From the sequence record PZ386947.1: DNA of 64,000 nucleotides. The stretch is one strand, 5' to 3'. The stretch's first letter is position 1; the number at the start of each line of letters is the position of its first letter. This document shows positions 6,860 to 56,089 of the stretch, in pieces. The stretch is from a phage. The notes beneath the pieces are model-generated. The model did no database searches. It was not told where the DNA came from and saw only the letters and a program-made list of their open reading frames with translations. The position numbers and the translations under genes were made by a program.

Positions 6860-7090
6860 TTATTTCTCAACCAATGATTGAATATAATCATGTAGGTCTT
6901 TAGATGCTTTACCCCACTTATTTTGGTATTCATTTTTAAGATTAGCACGTGATTGAGCTAATAAAACATCATTAGTTGGAGGTAAAGATTCTAACCGCTG
7001 AATCTGGCGTCCGTAAATCATTGCAGCTATCTCGGATTCATAAATCAATCCTTTGAGATGTTCAAATTGATGCCATGAAATCATTTGCAT
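6860..7090 (-). CDS. hypothetical protein (pseT.x)
   Basis: 76 aa ORF. Confidence 0.35.
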   Translation of the reverse strand: MQMISWHQFEHLKGLIYESEIAAMIYGRQIQRLESLPPTNDVLLAQSRANLKNEYQNKWGKASKDLHDYIQSLVEK

Positions 7091-7380
7091 TTATCCTCTT
7101 TTAACTCTTGACGATAATAACATATCATAGTTTTCTGATCATGTACATATCGTTTTACATCATTGAGCCAAATACGAAATTCCTGGGAATCTTCGAATGG
7201 CATACCGACCCAAGCTTTACCATCAATAACTTTAACTTGCCAAAATAGTTTAGCTTCATCGTATGACTTTATCTGTACAGGCCAATTAGGATGAACTGTT
7301 TCTTTCTTTACTTCTAGAGGCTTTGTCGAACAACCAGCTAGAAGACCGATAGATAATATTACTGCTGATAGTCTAATCAT
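7081..7380 (-). CDS. outer-membrane spanin (Rz1-like lipoprotein)
   Basis: 99 aa; signal peptide with lipobox LLAGC; 4-nt overlap with upstream TM/coiled-coil ORF; corresponds to T4 pseT.2. Confidence 0.65.
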   Translation of the reverse strand: MIRLSAVILSIGLLAGCSTKPLEVKKETVHPNWPVQIKSYDEAKLFWQVKVIDGKAWVGMPFEDSQEFRIWLNDVKRYVHDQKTMICYYRQELKEDKCK

Positions 7381-7730
7381 TTAGAAAGGTCCTGGATGTC
7401 TTCTGCGAACTTGTTGAAGGAGTTGTTGATTTGTTTTTCAACCAATCCTGGCTTACGAGCCACCACATCCGCCTTCTTTGCATCTTTGCGCAGTTTTTCA
7501 TTTTCACGCTCAATAGCAGCAATCGCCTCACGATTTTTATTATTCATCGCATCAATATAATTATACTGAATTCGCAAATTATTTAATGCTAAGGCGTTTT
7601 CATTGGCCGTTTTTGTAATTTCTACAACAGACGTTTCTAATCTTTCAATTTTATTTTTTAAAATTAAAGAAGTTCCGCCTAATGCAATTACAATTAATAG
7701 CAAACCTGCTGTCGTATTACTTAATTGCAT
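7377..7730 (-). CDS. inner-membrane spanin (Rz-like)
   Basis: 117 aa; N-terminal TM helix (LLLIVIALGGTSLIL) then charged coiled-coil; corresponds to T4 pseT.3. Confidence 0.65.
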   Translation of the reverse strand: MQLSNTTAGLLLIVIALGGTSLILKNKIERLETSVVEITKTANENALALNNLRIQYNYIDAMNNKNREAIAAIERENEKLRKDAKKADVVARKPGLVEKQINNSFNKFAEDIQDLSK

Positions 7731-8227
7731 AAAGTTTTAATAACCTCTATAATATCGTCTTGAGAAAGACCGTTAATTAAAATATGATGTTCAGCCGGAG
7801 ATTTAGAAATTTTAAAGCATGCCTCAACATCTTCTGCCATATCCGATGCACTACGATTTGGATTACTAATACCAAGGCGGTGTTTTCCCGTTAAAGGATT
7901 AACGATGATATAGCATTTACAGTTGTTAATATGAACATTAGGTTGAGTCTGATTAATGAACACATCGCAATCATATTTCGCAAGCTGATTTTCTAAAAAG
8001 ACTTTCATCTCTTCAACCGCATCAGGAAGCATATCACGGGCTTGCTCAAGACGACGATTTCGATATTCTTTAATGGTCGTTTTCCGCTTGACTTGCTTAG
8101 CTAAATCTTTCTTAAGATCGGTGATATATCCAACTCGACGATTTCCTTTAAATACAGAAATCCCATCTGTAGTATCACCGTATGCTTCAACGACCATTTC
8201 AGTAGTAATAAGCTGCAAATCCATCAT
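7721..8227 (-). CDS. alc: Alc, blocks host transcription on cytosine-containing DNA
   Basis: 168 aa (T4 Alc is 167); position between pseT cluster and rnlA. Confidence 0.7.
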   Translation of the reverse strand: MMDLQLITTEMVVEAYGDTTDGISVFKGNRRVGYITDLKKDLAKQVKRKTTIKEYRNRRLEQARDMLPDAVEEMKVFLENQLAKYDCDVFINQTQPNVHINNCKCYIIVNPLTGKHRLGISNPNRSASDMAEDVEACFKISKSPAEHHILINGLSQDDIIEVIKTLCN

Positions 8228-11133: not shown

Positions 11134-13398
11134 TCATAATTTACAGGATGAACAATCTTCAGCTTTTGGAGTTTCTATTTCATAATCATCAGTACCAGAA
11201 CCATCACGGGTATTATGATAATAGAAATTTTTTCCGCCAAAATACCAAAAATACAAAAGGTCATCAATCATTATTGACATTGGAACCTTTCCTTTTGGAA
11301 AAATCTGTGGGTCATAATATGTATTCGCCGAAGCTGATTGACAAACCCATTTCAGCATAATAGCTACCTGCGTAAGATAAGGTTTATTACCTTTCTTAGC
11401 TAATTTCCATGTATAATCATAGAGGTCTATGTTATGCTCAATATTGGGCACGACTTGATTAAAGGAGCCCTCTTTTGATTCTTTAACAGAGACTGGTCCA
11501 CGTGGAGGCTCGATACCGTTTGTACTGTTAGAAACTTGGGAAGATGACTCACATGGCATAAGTGCTGATAATGTGCTATTACGGATGCCAAAGAGCTTAA
11601 GGTCTTCCCGCAGCGACGACCAGTCACAAACGTATTTTGGAGCTGCGATTTGGTCAATCTTTTTATTGTACCAGTCGATAGGTAATTCGCCTCGAGACCA
11701 ACGAGTGTCTGAATAATATTCGCAAGGTCCTTTTTCTTTGGCGAGCTTAATGGATGCTTTAATGAGTCCATACTGTAATCTCTCAAATAGTTCATGTGTT
11801 AAATCGTTAGCATCTTCATAAGAAGCAAAGTTACTTGCCAGCCAAGCTGCATAGTTAGTAACACCTACACCGAGGTTACGACGCTTTTTAGCTTTTTCTG
11901 CTTCAGGAACTGGATATCCTTGGTAATCCAAAAGATTATCAAGAGCACGAACTTGAACTTCTGCTAATTCATTAATTTTATCTTGGTCTTGCCAATCGAA
12001 GTTATCCAGCACAAATGCAGATAACGTGCACAATCCAATTTCAGCATCAGGACTATTCACATCATTTGTTGGAATAGCAATTTCACAGCACAAGTTACTC
12101 TGACGAATAGGTGCCTTTTCACGAATAAACGGAGTATAGTTATTCGTATTATCAATGAACTGTACATAAATCCTTGCTGTTCCTGAGCGTTCAGTCATGA
12201 GCAATTCAAATAGTTCACGGGCTTTAATACGCTTTTTACGAATATTAGGGTCTTTTTCTGCTGCTTCGTATAATTCACGGAAACGGTCTTGGTCTTTAAA
12301 ATAAGAATAATAAAGCTCGCCACCCATTTCATGCGGACTGAACAAAGTAATGTAATCGTTCTTTCCGAATCGTTCCATCATCAAATCATTCAGCTGAACA
12401 CCATAATCCATATGACGAATGCGGTTTTCTTCTACACCTTTGTTATTTTTCAAAACGAGAAGATTTTCAACTTCCAAATGCCAAATAGGATAATAAGCAG
12501 TAGCAGCGCCGCCACGAATTCCACCCTGTGAGCATGATTTAACAGCAGTCTGAAAATGTTTCCAAAAAGGAATAACCCCAGTATGGCGTACTTCACCCAT
12601 GCCAATCTTAGAACCTTCGGCACGAATCATACCAACGTTAATACCAATTCCAGCGCGTTTAGAGATATATTCAACAATCGAAGCGGAAGCCTTATTGATA
12701 GACTTCAGCGAATCACCTGCCTCAATAACAACACATGAACTAAACTGTCGAGTCGGAGTACGACAACCAGCCATAATAGGAGTTGGCAATGAAATCTGTC
12801 GAGTAGATACTGCTTCATAAAAACGAATAACATGTTTTAATCTGTCAACAGGTTCATCTTGATGCAATGCCATTCCAATAGTCATAAATGCAAACTGTGG
12901 AGTTTCATAAATTTGACCAGTGGTTTTATCTTTAACGAGATATTTTTCTTTTAATTGCATCGCCCCGGAATAAGTAAATTCCATATCCCGCTCGTGCTTA
13001 ATTTTTGATTCTAAAAATGTAATTTCTTCTGCTGAATATTTTGACAATAATTCAGGGTCATATTTACCTTCATTTACACAGTAAGAAATATGGTCAATAA
13101 ATGAACGTGGTTCATACTGCCCATAAACATGCTTACGAAGAGCAAACATTAAACAGCGTGCAGCTACATATTGATAATCAGGTTCTTCAACCGAAATAGA
13201 ATTCGCAGCGGCCTTAATGACAATAGTCTGAATATCATCAGTTGTCATTCCATCACGGAGATAAGATTTAATATTTTCATATAATTCATAAGGATCTACT
13301 GATGTTCCCTCAGCTGCCCAAGATAAAACTTTAATAATTTTTTGCGGGTCAAAGCTCTGAGAAACACCACTACTTTTGATAACATTAATTAATTGCAT
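11134..13398 (-). CDS. nrdA: ribonucleotide reductase large subunit
   Basis: 754 aa, same length as T4 NrdA; C-terminal CxxC tail. Confidence 0.9.
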   Translation of the reverse strand: MQLINVIKSSGVSQSFDPQKIIKVLSWAAEGTSVDPYELYENIKSYLRDGMTTDDIQTIVIKAAANSISVEEPDYQYVAARCLMFALRKHVYGQYEPRSFIDHISYCVNEGKYDPELLSKYSAEEITFLESKIKHERDMEFTYSGAMQLKEKYLVKDKTTGQIYETPQFAFMTIGMALHQDEPVDRLKHVIRFYEAVSTRQISLPTPIMAGCRTPTRQFSSCVVIEAGDSLKSINKASASIVEYISKRAGIGINVGMIRAEGSKIGMGEVRHTGVIPFWKHFQTAVKSCSQGGIRGGAATAYYPIWHLEVENLLVLKNNKGVEENRIRHMDYGVQLNDLMMERFGKNDYITLFSPHEMGGELYYSYFKDQDRFRELYEAAEKDPNIRKKRIKARELFELLMTERSGTARIYVQFIDNTNNYTPFIREKAPIRQSNLCCEIAIPTNDVNSPDAEIGLCTLSAFVLDNFDWQDQDKINELAEVQVRALDNLLDYQGYPVPEAEKAKKRRNLGVGVTNYAAWLASNFASYEDANDLTHELFERLQYGLIKASIKLAKEKGPCEYYSDTRWSRGELPIDWYNKKIDQIAAPKYVCDWSSLREDLKLFGIRNSTLSALMPCESSSQVSNSTNGIEPPRGPVSVKESKEGSFNQVVPNIEHNIDLYDYTWKLAKKGNKPYLTQVAIMLKWVCQSASANTYYDPQIFPKGKVPMSIMIDDLLYFWYFGGKNFYYHNTRDGSGTDDYEIETPKAEDCSSCKL

Positions 13399-13955: not shown

Positions 13956-14816
13956 TTACACCGCCATCTTTCCTTTAATTGGCGGGTGAGATACATAGTC
14001 GTTAAGAACAAAATTATGCGGCTTTGCTAATTGACTCAACCAAAATACCTGTGATTCTGTGTTCCATTCATCAAATTCATCTGGGAATTTTAATTGTAAT
14101 TCGCATAAATCCATAGGTTCACGACGCAAAATTTCTTTACATTGTTCTACGTGATTCATATAGATATGAGTATTACCGCCAGAAAATATCAAATCTCCCG
14201 GAATAAGATTACATATCTTAGCTACAATATGAACTAACGCAGCATATGATGCAATATTAAATGGAAGACCGAGGAAAACATCTACTGATCGTTGATACCA
14301 CTGAAGGTCAAGGTATCCATTACGAACATTAAATTGATAGAACATATGACAAGGTGGTAATGCCATCTGCTTGAGTTCAGCTGGATTCCATGCTGAAACA
14401 ATTTGACGCCTATCATTTGGCAGTTTTTTAATACGATCAATAACTTCTATAATTTGGTCTACACCACCAAAATCACGCCATTGTTTTCCATAAATTGGAC
14501 CAAGTTCACCGCTATGGTATCCTAAATCTTTTGCTTGATTTTCGTAATTTTCATCCCAAACTGTTTTGCCTTGGATTAACGAATCATGCTGAATTAATCG
14601 TAAATCATTGACATTTGTGCTTCCTGATAAAAACCATAGAAGCTCAGCAATGCATGCATTCCACGCAAGCTTCTTAGTTGTTACCGCAGGAAAACCTTTA
14701 GTTAAATCCCAACGTAATTTAGTACCGAACAAAGCAATTGTTCCTGTGCCTGTTCGGTCATCGGTTTCATAGCCATTTTCAAAAATGTCTTTAATTAAAT
14801 CTTGGTATTGTTTCAT
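13956..14816 (-). CDS. td: thymidylate synthase
   Basis: 286 aa uninterrupted, identical in length to spliced T4 Td; thymidylate synthase active-site region (LPPCH). Confidence 0.9.
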   Translation of the reverse strand: MKQYQDLIKDIFENGYETDDRTGTGTIALFGTKLRWDLTKGFPAVTTKKLAWNACIAELLWFLSGSTNVNDLRLIQHDSLIQGKTVWDENYENQAKDLGYHSGELGPIYGKQWRDFGGVDQIIEVIDRIKKLPNDRRQIVSAWNPAELKQMALPPCHMFYQFNVRNGYLDLQWYQRSVDVFLGLPFNIASYAALVHIVAKICNLIPGDLIFSGGNTHIYMNHVEQCKEILRREPMDLCELQLKFPDEFDEWNTESQVFWLSQLAKPHNFVLNDYVSHPPIKGKMAV

Positions 14817-14861
14817 TTAGTACCTTATATAAATTATAATACATTTTATGAAGCTAAATAA

Positions 14862-15209
14862 TCAATACGGTTTAGCATCAAATTTTCTCTCAATTTCAGG
14901 CGTGAAATATAATTCTTTACCGCGTTTGGAAAAGCGACCAATAATATGATAATTATTCTCATCAAACGTGATATTACCAATATCCATAGCTTTCAACCAA
15001 ATATCGATATTTCTATCCAGCTTTATGTCAAAATTCCAATACGGTGAACTATTACCGAAAATACTGCAAGCGGATTCAGTGAAACAACTGCTATAAATCT
15101 TGTCTTTAGGAACTACTAATTGATAGACACCTTTAATAAACTGAGGACCCTGCCACTTTGGCTGTTTCGTGTCTTTTTCTAATAGAATAGGGTAATAATT
15201 AAAATTCAT
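14862..15209 (-). CDS. hypothetical protein (td.1)
   Basis: 115 aa ORF between frd and td. Confidence 0.4.
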   Translation of the reverse strand: MNFNYYPILLEKDTKQPKWQGPQFIKGVYQLVVPKDKIYSSCFTESACSIFGNSSPYWNFDIKLDRNIDIWLKAMDIGNITFDENNYHIIGRFSKRGKELYFTPEIERKFDAKPY

Positions 15210-17757: not shown

Positions 17758-18666
17758 TTAAAGGTCATTCAAAAGGTCATCCAGGTCCGTGTCATCAGCA
17801 CTAGATGAACTGCCAGAGCTTGAGCTCATAAAATCATCTTCAGTTTTTGTTTTGAAGTCATCAACATTGAATGCATCCAAATCATCAGCAACTTTATCAG
17901 CTTTCTTAGCGGCAGTTGCAGCGGCACCACCCATTGCAGCAGTTCCCATAACTTGACTGAACTTAGTGCTCAGTTCTTCAAATGATTTGAATTTATCTTT
18001 AGAAGTCATTTCAGAAAGGTCAACCATTTGTTCGAACAGTTCTTTCTGGAAAGATTCATCGTCAATGTTTGGAATCGCAGATTGATTCAGGAATTTAGAT
18101 TCGTCGTAGTTACTAAAACCAGAAACTTGTTTAACTTTCAGTACAAAGTTAGCACCTTCCCACGGGCAAGTTACATCAACCGGAGTTTCACCCATTTCAA
18201 CATCAACTGCAATCATTGCATTGATTTTATCCCAGATTTTCTTACCGAAACGATATTTAAATACTTTACCTTCGTTTTCTGGAGCAGCTGGGTCTTTTAC
18301 AACAAGAATGTTAGCCCAGTAAGAAGTTTTACGTTTAACAAGACCGTACTCTTTATTGTCAGTGTTGTACAAATCATTTTTACTGATATACTGACATACT
18401 GGGCAAGAATCGTAATCACCGTGGGTAGATGAACAGTTTTCAATATACCATTTACCATTTTTCTTGAAACCGTGATTTACAAGAATTGCGAATGGTGCTT
18501 GTTCATCATTTTTAGACGGAAGAAAACGAATTACTGCTTGACCGTTACCCGCATTATCGAGTTTCAGTTTCCACTCGCCTTTATCTTCAGAAGAAAAACC
18601 ACCTTTATTTCCAGCCAGTTTAGCCATTTGTGCAGCGAGTTCAGCAGTAGATTTACGTTTAAACAT
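17758..18666 (-). CDS. 32: single-stranded DNA-binding protein gp32
   Basis: 302 aa; N-terminus [17 protein letters not shown] and zinc site [12 protein letters not shown] recognised as T4 gp32; acidic Ser/Asp-rich C-terminal tail. Confidence 0.9.
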
Positions 18667-53657: not shown

Positions 53658-53861
53658 TCACGATTTATCCCCATAGATGTCTCTCATTAATTTAAGCGCT
53701 GAGCGTTCTAATTTCTTTTCTTTCTCAGCACTAATCATTGATTTCATCCATTCTTCCGATTCGTTCTGCATTTCTTTATTTGCTTGTTCAACCCAACCAT
53801 CATCAATATACATCGAGTTTGGTCTATTGAACCATTCAAGCATCTTCTTCAGAGCTTTCAT
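53658..53861 (-). CDS. hypothetical protein
   Basis: 67 aa ORF. Confidence 0.35.
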
Positions 53862-54333
53862 TTGTTTTACCTAAAACAACAGTAGGAGCATCATCAAATT
53901 CATGAATTTTTAGCAAATTTGGATGTAAACTATTCCATACAGAAGAAATAAAGTATGATAACGCATCTTCACTTGCAATTATAAATTTATTTCCTTTATC
54001 TATTTTCCAACTATATAGTGAATCGTACGAATAAAAAGATAAAGGCTTATCATTATATTGTTCTGCGCTAACATTAATGTATTCGGATTTAGTAAATGCT
54101 TCAATTGCTCTAAATGGAATATTTGGTACAGTTTCAATAATACCAATCTTTTTAAGTTTTATTTCAGCATCTTCTGGAACTGGCATTGAAACGAAATTTT
54201 CTACGAGATACATTGGGTCACAATAACCCTTATCAATCATTACTGCTACGGTAATTGGAACGTCTTTAGCAAACGACATACTATTACTGCTAATATACAT
54301 TTCAAACAAAATCGCTTCCATAATTTTCCTCAA
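53836..54333 (-). CDS. hypothetical protein
   Basis: 165 aa ORF. Confidence 0.4.
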
Positions 54334-54668
54334 TCACAAGATGTAGATGAACAACTAGAATCACAAGAACTTCCACATGAATCGCCCGTCCATACATGAA
54401 CAGGAACATTAGTGTCATATGAATCAGAACTAGACTGTGTATTCTGCGTATTAGATGATGTAGGTGTTGACCAACGCCAAGGATTTTTATAATATTCCTG
54501 GGCTTCTTCATAAGTCATAGTAACTGCTTCTACTGTTCCATCTCCCATATAAACATATTCAACTACAGTTAAAGGGAGGTAGTCATTTGAAATAGGAACT
54601 ACACCTTCTCCGGGAGTTGTAGAGAAAAAATCCGTAAAGAAACTTTTAAACCAATTAAAGATAAACAT
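54330..54668 (-). CDS. hypothetical protein with Cys/Ser-rich C-terminal tail
   Basis: 112 aa; C-terminus ...[22 protein letters not shown]. Confidence 0.4.
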
Positions 54669-54874
54669 TACAAAAAGCCTCTTTTGAATTCGACCTGCTT
54701 CTCACCATAATCATATCGAATCTCTGCGTTAAATTCAACAGACCCATCTGCGTGCATCATAAATGAATGCACAACAACTTCTGTAGACCAGGGTTGCAAT
54801 TCATATTTCTTCATTACATGCCGTGAAATGATAATATCTAAATCTTCATTTGGTTTAATCCAACGATTTAACAT
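54668..54874 (-). CDS. hypothetical protein
   Basis: 68 aa ORF. Confidence 0.35.
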   Translation of the reverse strand: MLNRWIKPNEDLDIIISRHVMKKYELQPWSTEVVVHSFMMHADGSVEFNAEIRYDYGEKQVEFKRGFL

Positions 54875-54939
54875 AGTGCTCTCCTCTATAAGATAATTCT
54901 ATTATACCATACTCATTTTGATATGTAAACCATTTAAAT

Positions 54940-54964
54940 GAAAAAGGACTCCCGAAGGAGTCCT
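54940..54964 (-). terminator. intrinsic terminator downstream of soc
   Basis: Stem AGGACTCC / GGAGTCCT with CGAA loop plus U-run on the minus strand; identical to hairpin at 2098-2117. Confidence 0.55.
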
Positions 54965-54969
54965 TGAAT

Positions 54970-55215
54970 TTATTCACCAGTTACTTTCCACAAATCTTCG
55001 TTTGCAGTAATCCATTCAGTACGTTGATTTTCTTCATATACTGTAGAATATGCTGCTTTTTCTGAAGGGAATGTCTGGTAATGTGCACCAGAAATTTTGT
55101 GAACGTCAGAATAAAGAGGGAAAGCTACGGAAATTTCCTTTCCTTCAATTTTCTTATTTCCATCTAATTTCTGCTCAAATGTTTTGATATTAACATAACC
55201 ACGAGTACTAGCCAT
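54970..55215 (-). CDS. soc: small outer capsid protein Soc
   Basis: 81 aa; MASTRGYVNIKTFEQKLDGNKKIEGKEISVAFPLYSDVHKISGAHYQTFPSEKAAYSTVYEENQRTEWI... recognised as T4 Soc. Confidence 0.9.
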   Translation of the reverse strand: MASTRGYVNIKTFEQKLDGNKKIEGKEISVAFPLYSDVHKISGAHYQTFPSEKAAYSTVYEENQRTEWITANEDLWKVTGE

Positions 55216-55245
55216 GTAATTCTCCTTTTATTTAAATTACATGAT

Positions 55246-55253
55246 TATTTATA
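55246..55253 (-). promoter_or_regulatory. late promoter (TATAAATA) for soc
   Basis: Minus-strand TATAAATA about 30 nt upstream of soc ATG. Confidence 0.5.
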
Positions 55254-55298
55254 ATAAATTCTCGCGGCTTTTAAGTCGTCGTTTATTTAAACGAGCTA

Positions 55299-55817
55299 TT
55301 AATAGCCTCGGTCTTGACGAGCGAAATTTTCAGCATTTTTCAGATAATAAAGTTTAAATATTTCTTCAGCTGACATTCCAAGAGCAATAAATTTATTCAT
55401 GAAAAAGTGAAATTGGTCAATCAGTTCAAATTTAATTTCAAGCTGATCTTCAGGAGATAAGTCTTGAATTTTCTTGGATTGCATTTCAGAATAACGTTTC
55501 TTCCAAGGTTTCCATACGGCAGAAGCTTCTTTTTCACCATTACTCATACCACCAAGAGAAGTATATAGTTCGCGAGTTTCATCTGCGATATAATCGTCTT
55601 GGTTTCGCAACCAAGCAAGAACTTCTCCTGCAGTTTCAAGTGAATCGGGATGACGATTTGTTTCTGGTTTATCATTAGCCAAACGAATCTGTAAATGCCG
55701 CTGCATATCAAGCATAACCTGCAGTGGGTCAATATTGTGCATAATATTCTCAGCATATGCACGATTTGCTTTATCAACACCTTCGATCAAATGAGCGCAT
55801 TCATTAAAGTGAGCCAT
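55299..55817 (-). CDS. 56: dCTP/dCDP pyrophosphatase (MazG-like)
   Basis: Track ORF trimmed to ATG at 55817 (MAHFNECAHLIEGVDKAN...), 172 aa (T4 gp56 about 171). Confidence 0.8.
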   Translation of the reverse strand: MAHFNECAHLIEGVDKANRAYAENIMHNIDPLQVMLDMQRHLQIRLANDKPETNRHPDSLETAGEVLAWLRNQDDYIADETRELYTSLGGMSNGEKEASAVWKPWKKRYSEMQSKKIQDLSPEDQLEIKFELIDQFHFFMNKFIALGMSAEEIFKLYYLKNAENFARQDRGY

Positions 55818-55888: not shown

Positions 55889-56089
55889 ATGGTACAAAAA
55901 TTAATGGCACTTGTTAATGCCATCAAAGGTAATAAAAAGCGTATAGCTTTTACTATTTCTGCTATGGTAGGAATTTTACTCTGGAACTTTATTCTATCAC
56001 CTGTTGCAATTGCACATGGTATTAATATTCCAGTAGTTACTCTTGATACATTCGTAGATCTAGCATTTGCTTTAGTTGGGTTAATTTAA
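55889..56089 (+). CDS. small membrane protein on the opposite strand (orphan)
   Basis: 66 aa with two hydrophobic helices; strong AAGGAGG Shine-Dalgarno 5 nt before ATG; lies in the 56-61 intergenic gap on the plus strand. Confidence 0.4.
   Translation: MVQKLMALVNAIKGNKKRIAFTISAMVGILLWNFILSPVAIAHGINIPVVTLDTFVDLAFALVGLI

Follow-up and report, generated by a model that had tools for sequence, protein, structure and literature searches.

Conserved Cys-Asp units at the C-terminus of the T4-type early protein Mrh.1 (DUF7206), a possible flexible metal-chelating arm

About half of the genes of phage T4 are still without a function. One of them, mrh.1 (NP_049642, UniProt P20706; T4 14685..15026, between mrh.2 and mrh), encodes a member of the family DUF7206; gene and family are already catalogued, the family without an assigned function, and no main text in the literature mentions 'mrh.1' or 'DUF7206', the gene being named only in supplementary tables. 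Here, we analyze the counterpart of mrh.1 in a 64,000-nucleotide stretch of phage DNA (sequence record PZ386947.1; this whole stretch is called the window), whose product ends in a tail rich in cysteine and serine. Several described C-terminal tails invite comparison. The Cys pairs at the C-termini of class Ia ribonucleotide reductase (RNR) alpha, in E. coli NrdA within a tail ending in the CK[IL] type, and of E. coli MsrA are redox shuttles that are reduced by thioredoxin or glutaredoxin. The C-terminal tail of E. coli SlyD and metallothionein-like peptides are metal-binding tails rich in Cys, His and Asp, and the acidic tail of gp32 is a protein-interaction and autoregulatory domain. Judged from its alignments, the conserved entity in Mrh.1 is two Cys-Asp units on a terminal Ser/Gly arm, usually after Tyr-Asp-Ser-Gly.

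The mrh.1 gene and the conservation of its tail

The window is Tequatrovirus DNA and holds the gene and its tail at the following positions:

54330..54668, minus strand: mrh.1 orthologue, 112 amino acids from an ATG, with a TGA stop (open reading frame (ORF) list, Pfam DUF7206, phrog_2031)
54333..54392, minus strand: C-terminal tail of Mrh.1, residues 93-112 (sequence, family statistics, alignments)

mrh.1 is a genuine small, early-transcribed protein gene, the orthologue of T4 mrh.1 and a member of DUF7206. Its ORF has 100% nucleotide identity with that of Shigella phage CM8, and its DNA matches 502 phage records at an identity of at least 90%. The protein scores 98.9 bits against PF23836 (DUF7206; gathering cut-off 25.6, E 3.3e-28) over residues 3-112 and profile positions 1-107 of 107, and it also matches phrog_2031 (E 1.5e-33). 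In the alignments, all three signature motifs of DUF7206 are present, i.e., the N-terminal W-L-K-x-x-F...P-G-E-G, the hairpin Y-x-G-D-G-x-x-E-x-V and the C-terminal S-C-D. T4 Mrh.1 and the window protein show two amino-acid differences, one inserted Thr (indel) and T94/A, and their tails are the same from Asp96 onward. The orthologous gene order soc - mrh.2 - mrh.1 - mrh - ... - modB agrees with T4 and CM8, and the mrh.1 region is also conserved in distant family members. The PADLOC defence/anti-defence library gave no match to Mrh.1, and an Rfam scan of 53700..55400 returned chance-level matches only. The original prediction of a 112-residue ORF with a Cys/Ser-rich C-terminal tail at 54330-54668 was matched exactly, on the minus strand. 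Its further remark that such a tail is atypical for T-even early proteins does not hold, as the ORF is the annotated T4 early gene mrh.1 and a tblastn search with a Dhakavirus-type member found a relative in 804 phage records, for which the hosts or organism names listed are Enterobacterales.

Within the tail, 12 of the 20 residues are Cys or Ser (4 C and 8 S), at a background of 1.4% C and 7.4% S in the 148 ATG ORFs of at least 60 amino acids in the window. Compared as 20-residue stretches, the tail ranks first in the window for both its Cys count and its combined C+S count. The four cysteines are Cys98, Cys102, Cys106 and Cys111, with Asp112 as the C-terminus. Cys106 and Cys111 form the universal pair and Cys98 and Cys102 are extras of the T4 type, according to a hand-checked register; MAFFT assigned the non-terminal conserved Cys to position 102 when 98 sequences were aligned and to position 106 when 11 were aligned. 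Repeated Cys-Ser units, as the original prediction had described them, are present here but are not what is conserved: the two Cys-Asp units are, the remaining two Cys being T4-type-specific. The tail is not a nucleotide repeat, because TRF detected no tandem repeat in its DNA and the eight Ser codons are mixed (TCA, TCT and AGT, thus TCN and AGY), which rules out an origin from a DNA-level repeat or slippage.

Conservation in related phages had been proposed as a check, with a tail absent or frameshifted in close relatives taken as a sign of an annotation artefact. The comparison was strongly positive, covering about 480 Tequatrovirus genomes and other genera. Of the 484 phage records that match the last 123 nt of mrh.1, 482 do so at an identity of at least 90% with at least 80% of the length covered, and the 90%-identity protein cluster that contains the intact tail (P0001) represents 515 sequences. 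Truncated or frameshifted entries are isolated (P0005 and P0006). An annotation artefact or frameshift is ruled out by the intact tail in about 480 genomes and across genera. In Escherichia phage ERS-1 (P0006, H90/H182), mrh.1 is frameshifted after about residue 60 and continues into mrh; this sole clear case reflects a sequencing error or else a knock-out of natural origin.

A family-profile search collected 103 cluster representatives, nearly all of them flagged DUF7206. Beyond Tequatrovirus, the gene was read in Dhakavirus-type genomes, RB69 (Mosigvirus), Klebsiella phage PWKp18 (Marfavirus), Citrobacter phage Merlin (Moonvirus), Serratia phage CBH8 (Winklervirus) and Klebsiella phage KLB31 (Kanagawavirus). 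In variant form, the tail is present across seven sampled genera of T4-like Enterobacterales phages. The middle of the protein can hardly be aligned from one genus to another, and the same kind of tail ends every one of them, for example SSWTGDSSYSSYDSGSCDSSSSSCD, WSGDSGSSYSDCGSSSGSCE, YAGSSYDSGSSYSSCDSGSVSCD, ISGDSYDSGYSSCDSSSSGGCD, GGSYDSGSCDSGGGSCD and SSDSYSSCDSSSSFSGSCD. Statistics over 100 full-length family representatives define the conserved motif as ...(Y)DSG(S)-S-C-D-S-[Ser/Gly]4-9-C-D-COOH. The penultimate residue is Cys in all 100 of them; at the last position, 95 have Asp, 3 have Glu and 2 have Asn. Exactly two Cys occur in the whole protein, both in the tail, in 89/100; 'CDS' is present in 90/100, and in 85/100 Asp-Ser comes directly after the upstream Cys of the last pair. 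The near-pure Ser/Gly spacer between the two Cys has 4-9 residues in 98 representatives (six residues in 57) and a full range of 4-18. Over the last 25 residues, the composition is 45% S, 14% D, 12% G, 8% C and 8% Y, with almost no K, R or H. The extra Cys of the T4 type occupy positions that are Tyr or Ser in the aligned sequences of other lineages; in one such lineage, ESCO47 (P0051) has three tail Cys, the extra one again where others have Tyr or Ser.

Codon changes show strong purifying selection on the tail at the protein level. Among five Dhakavirus-type genes, 12 of the 23 tail codon columns vary synonymously only and a single column varies non-synonymously, and the pairwise codon differences amount to 79 synonymous versus 6 non-synonymous. 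Across genera, TCN and AGY, GAT and GAC, and TGT and TGC interchange freely in the tail.

Escherichia phage 235Ecol030PP (P0003, a cluster of 17) encodes a 164-residue mosaic Mrh.1 with a T4-type N-terminus, a Dhakavirus-type insert in the middle (...EKAGNVGAGALPLNSKKLKEHLD...IDTAPIITATAVSSW) and a four-Cys tail. Modular recombination has therefore occurred inside mrh.1, with the tail retained.

The tail is predicted to be the tip of a longer flexible segment. AlphaFold2 with the 98-sequence alignment was applied to two family members, the window protein and a Dhakavirus-type protein, and divides the remainder of the window protein into three parts:

54624..54659, minus strand: N-terminal aromatic amphipathic helix, residues 4-15 (AlphaFold; W6, K8, F15 and P19 conserved)
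54471..54569, minus strand: best-ordered part, a beta-hairpin of residues 34-40 and 46-52 followed by a helix of residues 53-66 (AlphaFold predicted local distance difference test (pLDDT) 77-85)
54393..54470, minus strand: variable Ser/Thr/Asn/Gln-rich linker, residues 67-92, predicted disordered (pLDDT 40-46, alignments)

Overall confidence is low, with a mean pLDDT of 59.5 and a predicted template modelling score (pTM) of 0.28 for the window protein; taken together, the two models have a pLDDT of 59 and a pTM range of 0.20-0.28. The N-terminal helix has a hydrophobic moment of 0.45-0.63 and lies in the family consensus M-I-x-W-L-K-N-L-F-K, which is followed by P-G-E-G-V-V-P. The hairpin surrounds the invariant Y-x-G-D-G-x-x-E-x-V (invariant columns Y40, G42, D43, G44, E47 and V49), and the Dhakavirus-type model has the same hairpin, with further helices of low confidence placed in the spacer and the hydrophobic patch that precedes the tail. 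The linker is poorly conserved and rich in indels; the insert of P0003 lies here, and other lineages have a longer coiled or charged spacer and a short hydrophobic patch instead. From residue 67 onward, both modelled members are predicted disordered (pLDDT about 40-55), the tail mostly below 55. The models thereby suggest that Mrh.1 is a small anchor or oligomerisation element with a long disordered arm tipped by the motif, because helix and hairpin are predicted to be ordered and residues 67 to the end disordered.

Possible functions of the tail

Any function proposed for the tail has to explain two invariant thiols, an acid after each of them, a C-terminal carboxylate one residue from a thiol, a variable flexible spacer, the lack of basic residues, the Tyr/Cys interchange and the lineage-specific gains of Cys. 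We rank first, as a tentative reading of the sequences, that the tail of Mrh.1 is a flexible thiolate/carboxylate metal-chelating arm, because all of these features would be accounted for. Its thiolates and carboxylates would hold a Zn or Fe ion, or an Fe-S centre, and the arm could chelate by itself, within an oligomer or at a partner protein's metal site inside the infected Enterobacterales cell. Anchoring or oligomerisation would fall to the N-terminal helix and the hairpin, and the four-Cys tail of the T4 type, with its extra Cys at Tyr/Ser positions, would be a version of higher denticity. The tail composition (Cys, Asp and Tyr as ligands, no basic residues) is consistent with a disordered metal-chelating tail, and the replacements follow a ligand logic in that Cys, Asp and Tyr are all metal-ligand residues and the T4 type and ESCO47 gained Cys at Tyr or Ser positions. 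A flexible arm is favoured because a chelate loop tolerates a spacer of 4-18 residues, which a rigid docking groove would not. The purifying selection on the tail and the recurrence of a similar tail on unrelated membrane-anchored proteins of jumbo phages (below) also speak for this reading. A classical Cys4 zinc finger or ribbon was rejected in view of the missing CxxC, the conservation of only two of the four Cys, the variable spacing and the predicted disorder.

Several points weigh against a chelating arm. Two Cys plus Asp are a weak and unusual ligand set for a monomer, and the tail has neither His nor CxxC pairs. Paired Cys on a flexible C-terminal tail equally fit redox-active dithiol arms. 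The search of solved structures found no relative at E values up to 1. In a T4 time-course proteome, Mrh.1 went undetected and Mrh.2 and Mrh were detected (PMC9697503 supplement); this says little either way, because the tryptic peptides of Mrh.1 have 8, 53, 4 and 47 residues. The fitness effect in a genome-wide CRISPRi-ART knock-down screen was marginal: mrh.1 was 'Semi-Fit' (0.79; 0.069), one of only five wholly uncharacterised T4 genes with this label, and mrh.2, mrh, srh and soc were all 'Not Fit' (PMC11879866 supplement).

The closest rival, which we regard as fairly unlikely, is a redox-active dithiol/disulfide arm whose two invariant Cys cycle or form mixed disulfides with a partner. 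Mrh.1 could then be a substrate, decoy or sensor of host or phage thiol-redox systems, or become disulfide-linked to its target. The geometry suits this explanation, since both Cys fall in the final 7-20 residues of a predicted disordered segment, with a short flexible spacer between them (4-9 residues apart, pLDDT below 55) and the second Cys in the penultimate position. A tail of similar style (...EDCSSCKL) ends a redox enzyme of the same phage:

11134..13398, minus strand: NrdA, 754 amino acids, ending in ...PKAEDCSSCKL (in-window comparison for the class Ia RNR alpha Cys pair)

However, 89/100 Mrh.1 members have no other Cys and no enzyme domain was found in the protein, which leaves no active site to recycle. 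The Asp after each Cys and the strongly acidic tail should raise the thiol pKa, the end is CD and not the CK[IL] of RNR alpha, and the spacing is 6 versus 2-4. Redox cycling would also leave the extra Cys and the Tyr/Cys interchange unexplained.

Further possibilities draw on the occurrence of similar tails on unrelated proteins. Viral contigs were scanned with a codon-restricted DNA pattern for C-D-x5-C-D-stop, which matched three Dhakavirus-type mrh.1 genes and small ORFs on three metagenomic contigs that are AT-rich (about 30% GC) and 149-249 kb long:

L022 6009..6401, minus strand: tail-bearing membrane protein (pattern scan)
L025 5825..6193, minus strand: tail-bearing membrane protein (pattern scan)
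L024 149..518, plus strand: tail-bearing membrane protein (pattern scan)

In these jumbo-phage proteins, a transmembrane helix at the N-terminus is followed by a coiled segment and by an acidic-hydrophobic patch; they end in ...NDYSSYSSCDSCSDSSSPSCDSGGCSCD or ...NDYSYSGSTSCDSSSSSSESGSSSCDSGGCSCD, with tails of the form YSSYSSCDS...SCDSGGCSCD or SYDSGSSYDSSSSCDSGGCDCGGGCD. A profile search added P0110, in which a transmembrane helix is followed by ...SSYDSGSSYDSSSSCDSGGCDCGGGCD. The tail-bearing membrane proteins belong to no Pfam family, a search of the GenBank phage set gave no relative, and hhalign against the Mrh.1 profile aligns only the last 12 columns (probability 83%). Chance resemblance is unlikely, because the searched pattern covers only part of the Tyr/Ser, SCDS and terminal CD features. 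The tail thus plausibly behaves as a module on different, perhaps membrane-proximal, N-terminal anchors. A reading of the membrane-anchored analogues as spanins was rejected, as L022 has no ORF for a lipoprotein partner downstream. Two genes upstream of the tail-bearing protein, L022 encodes a Band_7/SPFH (HflK/C-like) protein (7037..7921, minus strand; Pfam E 7.8e-25), which might hint at the context of the membrane protease FtsH or be a coincidence.

Such a distribution would also fit a short linear docking motif or degron, an explanation that we consider unlikely. The terminal -S-C-D-COOH together with YDSG/SCDS would be read as a peptide by a host or phage protein, e.g., an AAA+ protease, a chaperone or a PDZ-like domain, and the Cys would serve as side chains without any chemistry. 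The motif is indeed conserved, disordered and extreme C-terminal, its penultimate residue being invariant and its terminal acid nearly so, and it is found on different N-terminal scaffolds, some of them membrane-anchored. Docking would further be in keeping with the host-takeover neighbours srh, mrh, modA/B and srd and with the Band_7/SPFH protein two genes from the jumbo-phage analogue in L022. If it took place at membrane-proximal FtsH, this would agree with the amphipathic N-terminus, with analogues anchored in the membrane, and with srh and mrh as sigma-32-related neighbours. The variable spacing of 4-18 residues between the CD units speaks against one rigid register, however, the link to FtsH is one that we purely infer, and CBH8 carries mrh.1 without an annotated mrh or mrh.2 alongside.

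A bolder reading, quite improbable in our estimate, is that (Y)DSG-SCDS-[S/G]n-CD-COOH is a previously unrecognised portable effector module of phages, carried independently by Mrh.1 in T4-like Enterobacterales phages and by the membrane-anchored jumbo-phage proteins, that delivers a thiolate/carboxylate 'warhead' on its disordered arm to a membrane-proximal metallo-enzyme or redox system of the host. One candidate target may be the Zn protease FtsH, the controller of sigma-32, which would link mrh.1 in function to its neighbours srh and mrh.

We hold it to be very unlikely that the tail is a substrate for post-translational modification, either as the core of a ribosomally synthesised and post-translationally modified peptide (RiPP), with azoline/azole, lanthionine or thioether formation and the N-terminus as leader, or as a target of ADP-ribosylation. 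A Cys/Ser/Gly/Asp-rich C-terminus after a conserved N-terminal region superficially resembles precursors of linear azole-containing peptides (LAPs) or lanthipeptides, and ADP-ribosyltransferases (ModA/ModB) are encoded nearby. In NCBIfam, Mrh.1 gives only a sub-threshold match to a lanthipeptide precursor: residues 94-108 weakly match TIGR04363 (FxLD lanthipeptide precursor, E 0.034), but at 14.2 bits versus a cut-off of 30 and in the tail only, which does not qualify the protein as a precursor. In all lineages examined, the conserved surroundings of mrh.1 lack YcaO, LanB/C/M/KC and radical-SAM genes, and the small ORFs that flank mrh.1 in five genera showed no enzyme domains. The family is restricted to lytic phages, without export or immunity genes. 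T4 is not known to encode enzymes of the YcaO, Lan or radical-SAM kind other than the RNR activase NrdG. ModA and ModB are Arg-specific, and the tail has no Arg. Among the roles offered in the original prediction, namely metal binding, disulfide-linked assembly and modification, the data favour thiol chemistry by a disordered arm and speak against the tail as a RiPP-type substrate.

Finally, a non-functional low-complexity tail or annotation artefact, to which the low-complexity composition and the missing detection in shotgun proteomics might point, is effectively excluded because the tail keeps its invariant Cys and shows overwhelmingly synonymous change from Tequatrovirus as far as Kanagawavirus, Moonvirus and Winklervirus, is intact in about 480 genomes, and belongs to a gene that is translationally coupled in an early operon and has a weak but measurable fitness score.

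Operon structure and neighbouring genes

The mrh.1 gene is flanked by the following features:

54944..54965, minus strand: intrinsic-terminator-like hairpin after soc (stem of 9 pairs, then a T run)
54901..54929, minus strand: near-consensus sigma-70 early promoter TTTACA-17-TATAAT with extended -10 TG (11/12 consensus matches)
54668..54874, minus strand: mrh.2 orthologue, 68 amino acids (phrog_1873, E 9e-37)
53836..54321, minus strand: mrh, ATG at 54321 (Pfam T4_MRH, E 1.8e-42; CM8 annotation)

The terminator-like hairpin separates soc from the mrh.2-mrh.1-mrh unit, and the promoter lies directly upstream of mrh.2. The TAA stop of mrh.2 overlaps the start codon of mrh.1 (TAATG), and the Shine-Dalgarno sequence of mrh (TGAGGA) consists of the mrh.1 stop codon and the following bases (TGAGGAAAATTATG); mrh.2-mrh.1-mrh are therefore a translationally coupled early unit. 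The 4-nt overlap and an upstream PF26878 (Y01J) gene recur in the divergent metagenomic relatives L003 and L005. The RNA of T4 mrh.1 has been assigned to the 'early' class (PMC9697503, supplementary file 4). The neighbours of mrh.1 comprise mrh.2, mrh, srh, modA.x, modB, soc and 56, and the host-takeover genes among the surroundings include srh, mrh, modA/B and srd.

An obligate partnership with Mrh.2 was rejected. Mrh.2 is encoded upstream in Tequatrovirus, L003 and L005 and is undetectable in more distant genera, in a test of ten ORF coordinates of which that of the L012 upstream ORF was guessed. In CBH8 (L020 2428..3093), mrh.1 follows directly after soc and neither mrh.2 nor mrh is annotated beside it, so Mrh.1 has no strict need for mrh.2/mrh neighbours in cis.

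Other observations concern the wider region. Two tandem genes of the T4_MRH family are present in some relatives (L005 8634..9480, plus strand), and T4 modA.3 (L001 1890..2360) is annotated as Mrh and shares a phrog with Mrh; the region therefore contains an Mrh paralogue. In the window, a 66-residue hydrophobic ORF (55889..56089, plus strand) lies between genes 56 and 61 on the opposite strand and overlaps the end of gene 61 by 4 nt. A similar ORF is annotated ('contains transmembrane domain') at this position in CM8, RB69, Merlin and KLB31, and one is also called in metagenomic relatives. T4 has segF and dam in the 56-61 interval, and both are absent from the window.

Comparison with known systems

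New here are the precise definition of the motif, the finding that only two Cys are universal, the evidence for purifying selection at the protein level over seven sampled genera, the predicted disorder of the arm, and the recurrence of the tail on unrelated membrane-anchored phage proteins. If the tail targets a host metallo-enzyme or redox system, Mrh.1 would represent a new type of small host-takeover effector; if there is no such target, mrh.1 would be an ordinary conserved gene.

Compared with T4 Mrh.1 and DUF7206 as catalogued, nothing of substance differs in the window protein, and membership in this family says nothing on mechanism. RNR alpha (T4 and E. coli NrdA) and MsrA have in common with Mrh.1 a Cys pair near the C-terminus on a flexible tail that contains Ser and Gly. 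However, their tails recycle the active-site disulfide within their own enzyme, whereas Mrh.1 has no other Cys or enzyme domain, and spacing, flanking residues and terminal residue differ, so that the likeness is one of style and not of homology. With SlyD and metallothionein-like tails, Mrh.1 shares a disordered, ligand-rich and acidic C-terminus, the T4 type having four Cys within 14 residues, but most Mrh.1 members have a far lower ligand density (2 Cys) and no His. RiPP precursors (TIGR04363 FxLD, microcin B17-type LAPs) likewise have a Cys/Ser/Gly-rich C-terminus after a conserved N-terminal region; mrh.1, in contrast, is sub-threshold in the hidden Markov model search, lacks modifying, export and immunity genes and is located in the early host-takeover operon of a lytic phage.

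A last comparison comes from within the window:

17758..18666, minus strand: gp32, with a Ser-rich acidic C-terminal tail (composition scan)

The gp32 tail is one of several 20-residue stretches tied at 8 Cys+Ser, with three scoring higher, and is the clearest match in a known early gene. Like the tail of Mrh.1, that of T4 gp32 is Ser/Asp-rich and disordered, but it has no Cys. Ser/Asp-rich disordered tails are thus not foreign to T-even early proteins, and the distinctive part of the Mrh.1 tail is its invariant Cys.

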